Shown: positions 2,547 through 12,341 of the stretch, one piece after another | Layout of the letters: each line of letters opens with the position of its first letter | Numbering within the stretch: the stretch's first letter is position 1 | Assembly: GCA_010405405.1 (NCBI GenBank) | Contig: MU004234.1 | Coordinates: 2,391,697 to 2,455,696 of the forward strand | Reading direction: 5' to 3' | DNA: 64,000 bases | DNA from: Microthyrium microscopicum | Taxonomy: Eukaryota | Program-made: the position numbers and the translations under genes | The notes under the pieces: model-generated | Told to the model about the DNA's origin: nothing | Databases searched by the model: none | The model's input: the letters and a program-made list of their open reading frames with translations, nothing else

Positions 2547-5500
2547 AACAATATACCCCAGGTATTCATTGGCGCATTTGGTGTTTTCGGTGTTCAAAAT
2601 GGCACAGCCATGTACTACATGATAATGTATTCTAATAAACGATATTTTTACCTACAACCATGTCTTGTAAGATCGTGAAATCATGACTTTTGCTCTACCG
2701 TCTGAAAAGTGCGAGGTTAGAAGCTCTAGACCCAATTTTGAACTAGTTAGAGTCGATATTTATAACCTGCAGCACGGGATGTTAGGCTGGAAATATGTAT
2801 GCAGCATGCGAGCATTAATGCACAGCCTCAAGGATCATGGAATTTTGACCACCCGTTTTTCAATAATGCCATTTTTCCATGCTTAGTTGCAGGTAGAAAT
2901 TCTCATTGGCTTCATTGATTGTCGTGCGAAAGAAGGTTCAAAATTTGCTTTTGAATGAGCCCAGATGTCTTCAACAGTGGCCGTTATTGCACAATCGTCT
3001 ACCGTAGACACCTGCATGTCTGTGTTCGGTACAAAAGAGTTATTGATCCAATAAGAGCGTTAACAGTAGCTTAAGTCTTGAACTTTGGCAGACTACTTTG
3101 GGTGTTTAGGACCAATCAATATGAATTCATGATTATGCAGCTTTGGCTTGAATGACAGCGTATAGAACCTCCAATGAGTATATCTAAGCCAAGCCAATAA
3201 GTAAGCCGATTAGCTCATCTATATGACAGAATGTATGTCCTTCTTTCCCCCAGATACCATTCGTAGGTAGAGATAATATAGTAGACTCATCCAAGGCAGA
3301 TGAGATATGGACATTATTTGCAAATTTGCATTATGCGTCGTTCACTACAATGAAAGACAAAGCATTTGTGACATGGCAGGCTGCGATCTCGTCAAATCAC
3401 TTCCAAGTGTTTTGATATTCAATGATTATACACGATAACGAACATACTCCCGTGCAGTACGTGGTCCCTGAGGTGAGCAGTCTACTGCCTTCAGTGACAA
3501 CTTACAAGCGCTTCATTCCCTATTGGATACGCATAATCGTCGAATCCGCAACAAATGCACGTTCACAAGAAACACACATTCATCAGGATGAGCTTTCTCT
3601 TCTGGACCTCAAGTGGAAAGTTTCTCTAGCTGTCTGCGGTTAAGAAGGCCATATTGTGACACATGTGGGTCTAGACTTGGACTACTATGATTATATCGTT
3701 CACAGGAATTATAGCTAAGACCAGTTTCTAAACACACGCGCATACCGGTATGTCTTCAGTGATATGATCATCTAAAATAACTCACTCTCGCAATCTTCGA
3801 GACACGTTCTATTCTATCGGTAAATGTCATCACACTGACTGATCTACAACAGAGAAATTCTCGAGCTCAAAGTCTGGTAGGACATTATTCTCATGAATGA
3901 TTCTAACATATGGCAAGGACGCTCAATCACACAGTTCTTCTGCAATCGTTTGAGTTTAACAATCAAGTATAAAGAATAGGTTACGATGATTAAGATCAAA
4001 TCTGTTTATGTATAGACTTAACATACCTGAAAACCTACAGATCAGTCCTAATATCAGTTTCCCCATTCAGTTCATATTAAATGCTTTTGGCAGTGAACAA
4101 CGAATGAGAGAACATAAAAAGTTCATTTAGAAATCGATAAGTACTTCCAAATCCGATACCTGGATATCCGAACGTGCCGTCAAAGAATCTAGACTAAATC
4201 ACTGTTGAGACCAGAAGCATAGGAATATCTAAAGCAAGAAATGGAGTCTGTAAAAGCTACCAAGAGGAAAGTTTCAACCACCACTAATTACAGAGCATGG
4301 GATCTCGGAAGCAACCCGATGGGGCCGCTGAGCAATTCACCTACCATTTCAGGCTTAGCCTTCCAAATGTGCACCATGAATGCTTCAACATTGATATTGA
4401 CCAAAATCCCGAATTTTCTCTTGGTGGATCAGAGTGCAAGTTCAATTGCTCGAACGAAACGAGGGATAAATGTTCCTCAGAATGTCCGAAATTTTGCAGA
4501 GGCAATCACTCATCCTTTATGGCTGCTTTTACTGTTTGGCGATCGACAGAACCTTGAAGCCACGCATTGGCTCCCCACGTGGCAATCAACACGCCAACTG
4601 TTTCTAGCTGCTTTTTAATCTAACTTGGCTTATTGTTGCAGAGTATTTCGCAGTCGATAGCCAACTTAAGTATATTTGATTACATCCAGGGACCATATAC
4701 ATTCAAGGATATGCTGGAAACTCAATCGTAAATATCCAGCCTTTTCCTGCAATTGCACTGTCAGTGTCCCAAAGTGTCATGCTCATCATCTCCACTTGGA
4801 CTTGAAACCCCAGTCCAGCACGGAGACACCGTTAGGTACTACTGACAGCAACTGACAGCAAATGAAAGCCAACACAACGTGCAACTTGTGGCCTATCCGC
4901 TGCCTCGGGCTGTTGAAGCGGCTGCGCCTCTTGTGCGGCATGGCATCGCGTTTGATGCCGTTAAAACTTCAGGCATTTGGAGCCTTTCAAAGGTTTCTAA
5001 TCAGCACTTCCGTGCCTGGTGTACGCTCAGCAGACTTTGACAAGGAAGACCGGTACGTACATTGTATTTAGATCATTAAAAACACTGGCATTTGCAAGAT
5101 GCAACTTGACCTGGGTAGCTAGGCCATTGCATTGATGATTACATGGGCTCTTGCATGTCCCAATCCTACCCGAGCCTTGAGATTTGGCTATGATATATTG
5201 CATTTGAAGGCCGCAACTAGAGAGATTTCTCGCTATGCACTACTAAGCGTGCCTTGGTGATATTGCGAAGAGTGATTTTCTTTGCATCTTGCGCAAGGAG
5301 CACACGGTGTCTCGCAGTGCTTTTGGACAGAAAACCTGCCTTACCTGCTCCATCTTCCAGCCCACTCTGAAAACAACCACCACTGTCCTCTGCCCCTCCA
5401 GAGTACAGTGAGAAACCCATCAAATCCACTGACCCACAACTCCGACTGACTGCACCGACTAGCGATCCAGACTGCAATATTTGGCCAAAATAGGCCAAGT

Positions 5501-6096: not shown

Positions 6097-8471
<2,375 letters not shown>

Positions 8472-9914
8472 TTTGAGGTCACACCGCGAATACGAAATCC
8501 AATCAACGATAAATATGCACCACATCCCGAGCCCGCCGCTCAACCACAATTGCCGGAAGTGCAAGTCCAAGCAGAAGCAGAAGAACAGGAAGAATACGAT
8601 GGAGACAACGACGACGAAGAGACGGCACTTTTGCGTGGTCCACTTCGCATCATCAATGCCTCACCAGCGTCAAGCCTCGAGCAGTTCAAAACCACCACGA
8701 TCAAGGAAGCGACTGGCGCCACTGAAGAATGGTCGTTTACAGACGAGGATGGAGTCGATTTCTTTGGTTAAGAAAATAACTGCCTCTTGCTTCGTTTGCT
8801 GCCGCGAGTTGCACGACGAAGACTATAGAAAGGCCTGATCAACGTATTTGATGTACAATAGAATTGATCATGGCCATTGTTTCAATATTTGGGAGCTGGG
8901 GGATCTCAGAGGGAAGTGCTCAGCTCGGAGCCGTCAAGAGTTCAACGGATGAAGGTAATAATGTGTAGGGGATACGGATGTGTAAAGAGGAACAACGTGG
9001 AGGGTGAAGTTCAAGCGAACAGCTTGGGTAATATCAAAGGGGTCTTTTTTCTGTAAAAGTAGTTGGAATGCCACACCCCATACCAAGCGCCATATTGTCT
9101 AGCTGTATTTACATGATATATTGTAAACCGAGCCATGTAAGGTAAACAAAAGGGGATAATATGGCTGTCTCGTCACGTTCAGACACATCTAATATTTGGT
9201 AGGTATACAAGCAACGGGCAATTAGATATAGGCCTACCCTCAAGGAATGCGCCTTCTACTATCATTTTTGTTAGCGAGCGTACACTTGCTCGCCATCGCA
9301 GCCGAGATTTACTAAATCTCTCAAGCGCTCGATGGAGCCAGCGAAGCTGATGAACAGAGCACGCATTTCAGGAGCCACCACATAATCACAAGAACTGCTG
9401 CATCACAGAGGCTGATGAAGATGTATGGGTGACGTAACTCAGCCCTCAAAATAGACCTTGACGAGGAACACAGCGTCCGTGTGTAAAGGTAAAGCCTGGC
9501 AAGCCTGGTCTGGATATCTGCAATTTGAGCTGCCTGATTGGGTTTGAACCCTCAATCACATGAATCAGTGAGCTCAGAGAGGTTTGGCCAGGTTGAGCGC
9601 TATCGATGATGAATAGCAGAGAGAGTGAAGGCGGAATTTGAAGATTAAGCAAATATACATGTTGCTGTTCGATGATGAAGGATTGGAAAGGCAGAAAGCT
9701 ACAACTGCATCTTCAAAGTCTTGGTACAAGGAGGTGGCCCCTGCACATCAGATGCTCTTACAAGTTACGCCTCCACATCCAACATCACCACCAGTAGTCC
9801 ACCACCATTCAAGGCACATCACTTTCTCCCCACCGCCAACACTATTTACCAGCTACTTTACTATCCTGATCCTGCCTGGTTTATTCTCCTACTCTTCAAC
9901 AACTGCTGGCCATC

Positions 9915-12341
9915 ATGTTCCGCGCACAGCAAAATGCCTTTGACGACCTCGTCGGTACGTTTACAGCTTACAAGCTCTCATGACCTAGGGCGGCCTCAGT
10001 CCACCACTGCCCGTTCCCAAGGCCTGCTTTCTCAAAGCCAGAAACTGATGGTGTCTCTTGACGTTGTTACTAACTGTCTGTAGGCAAGGCGACCGACGAG
10101 AATCTCACCAGCGAGAACTGGGAATACATCATGGTACGTCGCATCATTTCCTGCCGCCTAGTCCACCTTATTCCTCTCTCCATAATCTCTACCAACCCGA
10201 CGAGCTCCCATAACTAACGACTGTCGACTCATAGAACGTCTGCGACAAAGTAGGCGAGAGTGATGCAGGTCCTAAAGATGTCGTCGCCGCAGTCATCAAA
10301 CGCCTCGGTCACCGCAATGCGAACGTTCAGTTATACACCCTCGAGCTCGCCAATGCCCTATCTCAGAACTGCGACATCAAAGTACATCGTGAACTAGCTT
10401 CGAAAAGCTTCACTGAAGCTCTTCTACGCCTAGCCAACGAGCGAAACACACATCAAAAAGTCAAGACCAAGATCTTGGAACGTATGACGGATTGGGCAGA
10501 AATGTTCTCTAGTAACCCAGAACTTGGAATTATGGAGCAAGCATACATGCGCTTGAAAGCTCAAAGTAAGCTGAAATTGAAAATGGCTATGCGCTATACT
10601 AATCATGGCAGATCCTCATCTACACCCTCCTTCACAACCACCGAAGACAATGATTACACAAGCAGATAAACAGCGGGAAGATGATGAGCTTCAGATGGCA
10701 CTTGCTCTCTCGATAAAAGAAAAGGAACGGCCGAATCCATCTCACGGAAAAGCTCCTGCCGCTCAGAATAATACATCGCAGCCAGCGGAAAGCACGATCC
10801 CACAACCTGTCGCCGTACCATCTGGGACAACCGCTGCTACCGTTTCTCGTGTGCGAGCCCTCTATGATTTCAACCCAACCGAACAAGGCGAACTTCAATT
10901 CCGCAAGGGCGATATTATTGCAGTTTTGGAGTCGGTATACAAAGACTGGTGGAAAGGCTCACTTCGAGGTCAAACTGGAATTTTCCCATTAAATTATGTC
11001 GAGAAGCTGCAAGATCCCACACCAGACGAGCTAGAGCGAGAGGCACATATGGAGGCTGAAGTTTTTGCCGAGATCAAGAATGTAGAAAAGCTTCTTGCTC
11101 TGCTGAGCACCAGCGCAGAGAGTGGACGAGGAGACGTCCGGGATAATGAAGAAATAACCGTAAGTGCTTCGTTCGACTTGCTGGCTTTTACTTACAGAAC
11201 AGAAGACACTCTATCACTCAACACTGGCGATTCGCCCGAAGCTTATTGAGCTCATTGGCAAATACTCACAAAAGAAAGGTATGTTTCTTTCGAGATTTTT
11301 ATGAAATCATACTGACGATATAAAGATGATTTTACGCAACTGAACGAGAAGTTCATCAAAGCGCGACGAGACTATGAAGGCCTACTCGAAGCATCAATGT
11401 CACAGCCAAGTCGCCAATATGGCAGACCTCCTTATCAAGCTCCTTACAGCCAGCAACAAGATCCATACGCTGGTGGGTATGCAAATCAAGCGCCGCCAGC
11501 CCAACAACAGCAACAACAGCCATACTATCCTGCTGGGCCCTCAGAATCACAGTATCCTCAAGCCAATGGTCCTCAACCATTTTACTTTGTCCCTCCTTCA
11601 CAGCAAAACCAAAGCACCCAACAGCTCGCTACACATCACGAAAACAATAGCGCTGAGGATCTGTACTCCGCTCCAAGTAGACCGAACGTGAATGCACGGC
11701 CACAAAGCATGGCGTTTGATCCAAGAATAGCTGGTGCTCCAGGTGCCCAACCCCAAGAACTTGCCACCGGCTCATTTGACAGTCCTGTTGACGGTCGAAC
11801 AGGTTATCCGCTACCTGGCCAACATGCTCCTCCTCAACAACCCCAGCAACAACCACCGCCCGCTCCGCAAACACAGGCTCCGTCTGCACCACCAGGTCAA
11901 GCGCCTCCTGGCTATGAACAACAGTACTCCAATGCTCCTCCAAGCTCCAATCAACGCCCCGCCTCTCCCTACGCTGCTCAAGCTCAACAAAAGCCCGTCA
12001 ACGCAATCTACTCTCTCCCGTCGCAATCGCAGGCTCGCATTCCCAACCAACAACCGTCAGATCCATATTCGTATGCCGCCCAGCAACGTCCTCCGACTGC
12101 TGGTAGTGTGCCCCCTTCATCCACGTCACCAGTTCAACAACATCAGCCTGGCTACCCCCAGCAAGGCGGACCTGCTCAATCACAACCTCCACCTCAAGGA
12201 AACGGCTATCCGCCCCAAGGAGCACCACCTGGCGGCGTACCAGCAGGATATCCTCCGCAAGCTGGGTATCCTGGATATCAGTCCTATCAACAACCAGGGC
12301 GGCCGCGAGAAGCGGAGTGGACTGGGGCAGCTGCGCCATAG
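9915..12341 (+). CDS. HSE1: ESCRT-0 subunit Hse1/STAM (VHS-UIM-SH3-GAT, Pro/Gln-rich tail)
   Basis: Spliced N-terminus MFRAQQNAFDDLV-GKATDENLTSENWEYIM (VHS), UIM EDDELQMALALS, SH3 VRALYDF...WWKG...GIFPLNYV, GAT region AIRPKLIELIGKYSQKK. Five GT-AG introns are recognisable. Confidence 0.92.

Follow-up and report, generated by a model that had tools for sequence, protein, structure and literature searches.

An in-frame, coding-like tail behind the UAG stop codon of STE20 in Microthyrium microscopicum as a candidate for conditional stop-loss editing

The STE20 gene of Microthyrium microscopicum is followed by a real, lineage-restricted and coding-like tail of 99 codons that lies in frame behind its true stop codon. 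The gene was analysed within a stretch of 64,000 nucleotides (the window; contig MU004234.1, positions 2,391,697 to 2,455,696), and positions given without a locus name are counted from the first letter of the window. As the initial annotation had described, the frame stays open for 99 codons after the TAG at 8469-8471, ends at a TAA (8769-8771), lacks an in-frame ATG and encodes an acidic peptide (8472..8771, + strand). It is probable that the tail is still made in some condition. Among the routes that could lead past the stop, conditional A-to-I editing at A8470 (TAG at 8469..8471, + strand), by which UAG would become UIG and be read as Trp, is tentatively our best reading, with readthrough next. 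Three statistics that are in part independent (coding log-odds with simulations, synonymous codon choice, and a synonymous excess against a captured copy) speak for the proposed protein-coding extension of Ste20, as does the presence of the tail on the mRNA; an edited, spliced or translated product was not observed in the data that we analysed.

The gene model consists of six exons (6097-6300, 6550-7036, 7090-7781, 7833-7932, 7983-8317 and 8367-8471, + strand), extends over 6097..8471 and yields an unbroken translation of 640 amino acids. A CRIB region, a PAK kinase domain and a C-terminal motif place the protein among the Ste20/PAK kinases. The closest matches of the kinase exon, at 82-85% identity, are the Ste20 kinases of Venturia, Verruconis, Trichodelitschia and Tothia, and a protein of this genome is identical, across all 211 residues used as query, to one labelled Microthyrium microscopicum; judged by sequence the host is thus a Dothideomycete and not a Sordariomycete. 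One further PAK is present in the genome (67%) and is probably Cla4. The conserved ten-residue C-terminal motif (8400..8429, + strand), which we take to be the G-beta-binding motif, was found in 77 of 120 homologous proteins; the 43 that lack it by pattern are for the most part fusions, distant proteins or gene calls that extend into the last intron. All 77 motif-bearing homologs end 5-17 residues beyond the motif, and the distance in this STE20 is 14 by the measure of our script. The TAG at 8469-8471 thus matches the ends of the annotated orthologs and, by this comparison, is the ancestral STE20 stop, a canonical UAG closing an otherwise complete gene.

RNA evidence was taken from a single public run (X1) in the form of contigs, whose RNA nature is shown by their splice joints. 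All five STE20 introns are present as joints. A contig with a depth of 578 spans 6549 to 9672, with no gap and no variant letter from exon 6 on, and it shows no poly(A) end before 9672. Since this contig is unbroken, the tail lies within a 3′-UTR of at least 1.2 kb in the main mRNA (8472..9672, + strand). A poly(A) site upstream of about 8600, which the initial annotation had named as evidence against its proposal, is absent, as the mRNA reaches 9672. The dominant form in the X1 sample carries the UAG and is normally spliced. Neither of the RNA signatures that had been suggested as a check, A>G at 8470 or a junction at 8471, was found in X1, and at A8470 the contig shows the TAG form only; minority variants are lost in such contigs, and no stage is recorded for the sample. 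Intron 1 (6301-6549, + strand, 249 nt) is retained in a minor X1 contig with a depth of 29, compared to 319-578 for the spliced forms.

Coding-likeness was scored with a periodic Markov model, for which 400 kb of the genome, with the window excluded, served as training set. In the Ste20 frame the tail reaches a coding log-odds of 0.319 per codon (0.35 and 0.27 for its two halves), while the other two + frames score about 0 and the sequence after the TAA scores -0.27. The tail thus lies above the 95th percentile (0.27) of 38 held-out windows of long ORFs, whose median is 0.17, and the maximum among 852 non-coding training windows was 0.128. Directly behind the stop the signal is weak for ten codons, and it sets in within about ten codons of 8472. 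When 20,000 sequences were simulated with the composition of the tail itself, 6.3% (1253) had no stop, and 0.319 was reached by none of them; simulations from the composition of the whole 3′-UTR gave a 99-codon stop-free frame in 0.5% of cases. With the amino acids held fixed, the synonymous codon choice differed from uniform or local-composition choice (p<0.001) and was compatible with coding usage (p=0.12). The synonymous codon choice of the tail therefore follows the coding usage of the genome.

The tail was also compared with other gene ends. An earlier survey of 481 ORF ends was dropped as noisy due to introns and antisense frames, and the survey used here comprises 114 candidate ends in 864 kb; exon 6 of STE20 was too short to enter it. 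Tails of at least 99 codons follow four of the 114 ends, and the best coding score among the 19 surveyed tails of at least 40 codons was 0.156, compared to 0.319 for STE20. In these 114 sampled ends, long or coding-like tails were not enriched for TAG. Gene ends with TAG mostly have short non-coding tails (median 13 codons), which indicates that UAG is not generally leaky.

A second line of evidence comes from a 120-nt segment of the tail (8614..8733, + strand), of which a 79% identical captured copy lies at G000:C3:2316589-2316708. Of the 25 differences between the two, 11 are synonymous in the Ste20 frame where 6.9 are expected (p=0.04, with substitution types held fixed and the frame chosen beforehand), a weak test given only 25 differences. 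The Ste20 frame is the best of all six for synonymous excess, and the other 14 differences are non-synonymous. Among nine control blocks, three from clear ORFs on C11 and C15 gave p=0.013-0.027 in their ORF frames, one block on C9 gave p=0.01 in a stop-containing frame, and the remaining five were not significant in any sense frame. The excess is modest evidence that the tail may be under purifying selection. Additionally, the copy on C3 carries indels upstream, and the STE20 copy is free of stops and frameshifts. Neutral decay over 6-12% divergence keeps the frame in 2-50% of simulations, depending on divergence and indel rate, and in 27-50% if indels are left out. No other donor gene for the tail was found elsewhere in the genome.

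Searches for homologs of the tail gave no relative. Compared with longer proteins, the tail alone had no match at E<=0.001 among 170 candidates, a search of the ESM Atlas gave no usable match, and Pfam showed no domain in the tail, in its +1 frame or in four frames of the C3 copy. The last exon together with the tail, searched against 1.84 billion representatives, gave one match to a repetitive bacterial surface protein (34%), which was judged to be due to chance. The comparison was extended to 80 metagenomic PAK loci with 66-80% kinase identity, loci above 80% not being returned; the best E-value in tblastn with the tail was 0.5. The last STE20 exon was located in 59 of the 80 loci and ends in TGA (27), TAG (17) or TAA (15). 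None of the 52 complete tails in these loci, which have 0-95 codons, resembles the tail described here, and TAG and hairpin (see below) are not kept across the 59 loci at this distance (66-80% kinase identity). The tblastn search of relatives with the extension, which had been suggested, covered distant loci, and its result speaks neither for nor against conservation of the frame. Because homologs were found neither in the protein searches nor in the PAK loci, we regard the tail as lineage-restricted. One Sordariomycete-like STE20 locus (L037) has a TAG centred in a predicted hairpin, followed by a 29-codon tail.

The surroundings of the gene are ordinary. From the STE20 stop to the VHS exon of the neighbouring HSE1-like gene, so named from its VHS and SH3-type sequence, the distance is 1764 nt (8471-10235), compared to 980-2201 nt in relatives, which gives no hint of a foreign insertion. 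These two genes adjoin across distant Pezizomycotina (19 metagenomic loci).

In the predicted 61-nt fold, the stop codon lies in the loop of a hairpin, CCUCA-[UAGUU]-UGAGG (8464..8478, + strand), in both the MFE and the centroid structure. A8470 is unpaired with a probability of 1.0, although the z-score of the whole fold is only -1.7. When the closing A-U pair is opened, a 7-nt loop results that carries U and then A at positions 2 and 3, like the anticodon loop of a tRNA (U33, A34). This strict anticodon-like geometry occurs at 13 of the 1549 TAG triplets of the window, while any hairpin loop holds 121 of 387 folded window TAGs (31%). Fungal mRNA editing by the tRNA deaminase Tad2-Tad3 is reported to favour hairpin loops and U at -1 (PMC9600606, PMC11156358), and the predicted fold of STE20 exposes A8470 within such a loop, preceded by U. 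The site thus resembles the preferred substrate of fungal editing, which speaks for this route. The same work reports a preference for C or U at -2 and for purines at +3 and +4 (PMC9600606). STE20 has A at -2 and U at +3 and +4, the bases depleted in editing of F. graminearum; these preferences are described as minor, with hairpins compensating (PMC9600606).

Three further genes were compared in the same way, namely RPC5 (TAG followed by a coding-like tail of 202 codons, score 0.20), CWC21 (TAG and 65 codons, 0.148) and HIR1 (two TAGs and then 141 codons, 0.158). The stops of RPC5 and CWC21 each form the centre of an MFE hairpin, as does the first of the two HIR1 stops but not the second. Stop-centred hairpins are therefore present in three of three genes (three of four stops) compared to 4 of 40 control TAG ends (Fisher p=0.003 by genes, 0.01 by stops), where the geometry had been fixed on STE20 before the three genes were seen and the genes themselves were preselected, not blind. 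With a looser test that accepts any hairpin loop, the numbers are three of three genes and 15 of 40 control stops (p=0.07). The stops of RPC5, CWC21 and HIR1 are taken as gene ends, and the ancestral position is established for STE20 alone. Two control TAG ends, one of them that of HSE1, show the strict hairpin and have no coding tail. The TAG of the HSE1-like gene (12339-12341, + strand) has a strict anticodon-like stem and is followed by only three codons.

The initial annotation had proposed a second Ste20 isoform made by editing, readthrough or alternative splicing. Editing fits the hairpin, and the other two routes fare less well. Readthrough of the unedited UAG by a near-cognate or suppressor tRNA (Gln, Tyr or Lys) would constantly produce a few percent of tail-bearing Ste20. 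It would account for the coding statistics and for the unedited contig without a new enzyme, and the RPC5 and HIR1 stops read TAG-CAR, which is part of the classic leaky motif. Programmed readthrough, which likewise hides an in-frame C-terminal extension, is associated with the contexts UAG-CAR-YYA or UGA-CUA. At the STE20 stop, however, neither of these contexts is present. As had been noted before, its context UCA-UAG-UUU-GAG is not a classic readthrough motif as such motifs are generally known, and neither is TAG-TAT at CWC21; STE20 has no CAR-YYA, CAR-NBA or UGA-CU context and no 3′ stimulatory structure, as the sequence 3′ of the stop folds no better than shuffled sequences (z +1.2 and +1.7). 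The surveyed gene ends also argue against a general leakiness of UAG, and two serial stops as in HIR1 would be passed more easily by editing than by leaky decoding. We consider readthrough rather unlikely. For splicing, the elements pointed out earlier are all present (GTAAAG at 8415, the intron-5 donor at 8318 and CTCATAG/TTT at 8471). If the AG of the stop (8471) served as acceptor for the donor at 8318 or 8415, the result would be an alternative last exon in which the tail replaces the C-terminus. Both joins are in frame, the YAG is present, the coding signal begins close behind 8472, and the 57 nt of 8415-8471 are near the 49-53 nt of four real introns. On the other hand, a CTRAY branch site is present in each of the five real introns and missing before the acceptor at 8471: the only site of this type in 8300-8800 is that of intron 5 at 8351, which agrees with the earlier remark that no strong branch point precedes 8471. 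An alternative 3′ splice site is expected to show a branch point 8-30 nt before its YAG and a junction, and neither was found at 8471. Only canonical joints occur in X1, even though the intron-1-retaining contig with a depth of 29 was kept. Skipping of exon 6 would probably remove the end of the kinase domain as well. An alternative last exon is thus very unlikely, and the loss of the G-beta-binding motif that had been expected from it does not follow from our preferred reading, as editing or readthrough would keep the motif.

The tail could also be a relic that was once coding, as part of an extended, edited or read-through Ste20, and is no longer translated. That no product was seen, that three protein searches gave no homolog, that 14 of the 25 differences to the C3 copy are non-synonymous and that a neutral frame without indels often survives in simulations would all agree with a relic. 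Against it stand the 99 codons without stop or frameshift, whereas the captured copy has indels, as well as the lack of any sign of an inserted foreign fragment or of another donor gene in the genome. Because the stop is at its ancestral position, a formerly extended Ste20 would require that the stop was lost and then regained. A relic seems fairly improbable. Finally, an A-rich, T-poor stretch of 3′-UTR with triplet-like repeats might be open and coding-like by accident. A further + frame stays open over 139 codons, stop-free sequences make up 6.3% at this composition and tails of this length follow 4 of 114 gene ends. However, none of the composition-matched open frames reached the score, the codon-choice test is independent of amino-acid composition, and the non-repetitive second half still scores 0.27 and bears the synonymous excess. 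A chance origin is largely refuted by these observations and is the least credible of the explanations.

If A8470 is edited, the main product would still be the ordinary 640-aa Ste20 that ends at the TAG. In a certain condition, most likely fruiting-body development, or a response to stress or virus, a tRNA-deaminase-type enzyme would convert A8470, displayed in the anticodon-like hairpin loop, to inosine. The UIG would be read as Trp and ribosomes would append the 99-residue acidic, presumably disordered tail. The outcome would be a 740-aa isoform that retains the kinase and the C-terminal motif.

The precedent for such editing, which the initial annotation had drawn from Sordariomycetes, is confirmed by published cases in F. 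graminearum and S. macrospora, but the host studied here is a Dothideomycete. In F. graminearum, 403 stop-loss-edited genes are reported, with tails that are longer and disordered (PMC13123824). FG4G28950, annotated as 'ste ste20 paka protein kinase' (Ste20 or Cla4), is listed there with a stop-loss edit in 23% of 665 reads (PMC13123824). For S. macrospora, 15 stop-loss events with peptide evidence are described, for example WC-1 with 131 additional amino acids (PMC6794485). Among the matches listed for S. macrospora ste20 in supplementary data, the rows show a C>G variant in the UTR and not a stop edit (PMC5381528). Fusarium mRNA editing is reported to need Ame1 (DUF726) with M-V at positions 500-501, where ancestors have K-N, and Tad2-Tad3-Ame1 editing is said to have originated in Sordariomycetes and to have arisen independently in Pyronema (PMC11087585). 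Aspergillus and Botrytis are reported to have shown no such editing. Reviews describe it as open in which filamentous ascomycete classes mRNA is edited, and they single out pseudothecial fungi as untested (PMC11156358, PMC7306014). Our literature search yielded no report of mRNA editing in Dothideomycetes and, in main texts, no paper on stop-loss editing of fungal ste20.

Candidate editing enzymes are nevertheless encoded in this genome. There are three DUF726 genes, two of which are alike (39%) and were taken as Ame1 family; many Dothideomycetes are listed with two such genes (PMC11087585). One Ame1-family paralog (L153:1267-3525, - strand, G000:C7) has L-V at the site that probably corresponds to M-V of Fusarium Ame1, mapped by spacing alone to the catalytic Ser that follows (30 residues, compared to 31 in Fusarium). 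Of 120 DUF726 homologs, 10 were not parsed at this site; 79 of the 110 parsed ones have K-x and 17 have M/L-x, mostly the closest relatives of the L-V paralog, and none showed K-N exactly. The nearest database relatives of this paralog, and Verruconis, have M-A or L-A in place of K-x, and the Mil1-like paralog has L-A at the mapped site. The Mil1-like gene and one Ame1-family gene adjoin on the same strand (L157, G000:C1:945000-954900). The genome also holds five OTT_1508-like (OLD-type) deaminase domains (L204-L208, on C4, C7, C14, C4 and C15). By sequence, the Ame1-family genes and the OTT_1508-like domains are candidate editors. A wider scheme would be that this Dothideomycete lineage has its own convergent A-to-I mRNA editing, in which an Ame1 paralog (K-to-L/M at the Tad3 contact) or an OLD-type deaminase of wide specificity reads anticodon-mimic hairpins at UAG and switches on the tails of STE20, RPC5, HIR1, CWC21 and others; we regard this scheme as conceivable and somewhat doubtful.

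The STE20 tail may work like Sordariomycete stop-loss editing, judged by analogy, although its membership in this class is unproven. As in FgDBF2, FgMOB1 and FgCDC14, the UAG is the canonical stop of a signalling kinase and lies in a hairpin loop, and the published tails are likewise disordered, in frame and little conserved beyond close relatives (PMC13123824). In contrast to them, the host is a Dothideomycete, the tail has 99 residues compared to 24 for FgDbf2 and shows measurable coding constraint, and editing is predicted here from DNA and fold. Like the S. macrospora extensions, the tail is long and follows the UAG of a complete gene (PMC6794485), whereas those are proven by peptides and the STE20 tail, in which no domain was found, is known from sequence. 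OLD-ZAO editing (Neurospora; CHE1 in Fusarium) also acts on UAG in hairpin loops with U at -1, and the genome studied here likewise has OTT_1508-like domains, but the reported sites are for the most part premature stops of zinc-finger genes that neighbour the enzyme, edited when a virus infects (PMC12754623), whereas STE20 has a canonical stop.

The likeliest function of the tail, by analogy, would be to lower or retune Ste20 dosage. This is our default guess because Fusarium stop-loss tails were destabilising in six of six GFP tests (PMC13123824). More speculatively, the terminal acidic segment could serve as a docking site. Its W-S-F (8730..8738, + strand), within EEWSFT, resembles the WxF motif, a likeness of three residues only; in STRAD, MST3/4 and Nak1 this motif is reported to bind MO25/Hym1 (PMC3725419). 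In its acidic context and its near-terminal position in the tail of a STE20-family kinase, the W-S-F agrees with the WxF kinases (PMC3725419), but WxF is known in germinal-centre kinases, and the two-hybrid interaction of N. crassa STE20 with HYM1 was obtained with the normal, unextended protein (PMC3447951). A complex prediction for Hym1 and the last 36 tail residues gave 0.28 where the mark is 0.34, and was counted neither for nor against docking. The TAG inside the Hym1 match lies in an intron.

Dothideomycetes are the largest fungal class, and the stops of STE20, RPC5, HIR1 and CWC21 provide named sites at which mRNA editing in a Dothideomycete can be decided. If editing holds true, ADAR-free mRNA editing would have arisen independently once more, and a core MAPK-activating kinase would be shown to carry a stop-gated tail that is under real coding constraint. 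Should readthrough act instead, a noteworthy non-canonical context would be gained.

The captured copy on C3 sits in an intergenic mosaic (L011:1800-5200, G000:C3: about 2313400-2316800). Its pieces are 40-180 nt long, lie mostly in sense orientation and correspond to at least six other host loci (C5, C9, C11, C15), to which they are 72-93% identical. Also present are a triple tandem repeat of 179 nt and an inverted repeat of 18 nt (1920-1937 / 4831-4848). The mosaic looks like gene capture of the Pack-MULE or Helitron type. Such mosaics of captured fragments offer a means to gauge coding constraint where no close relative has been sequenced.
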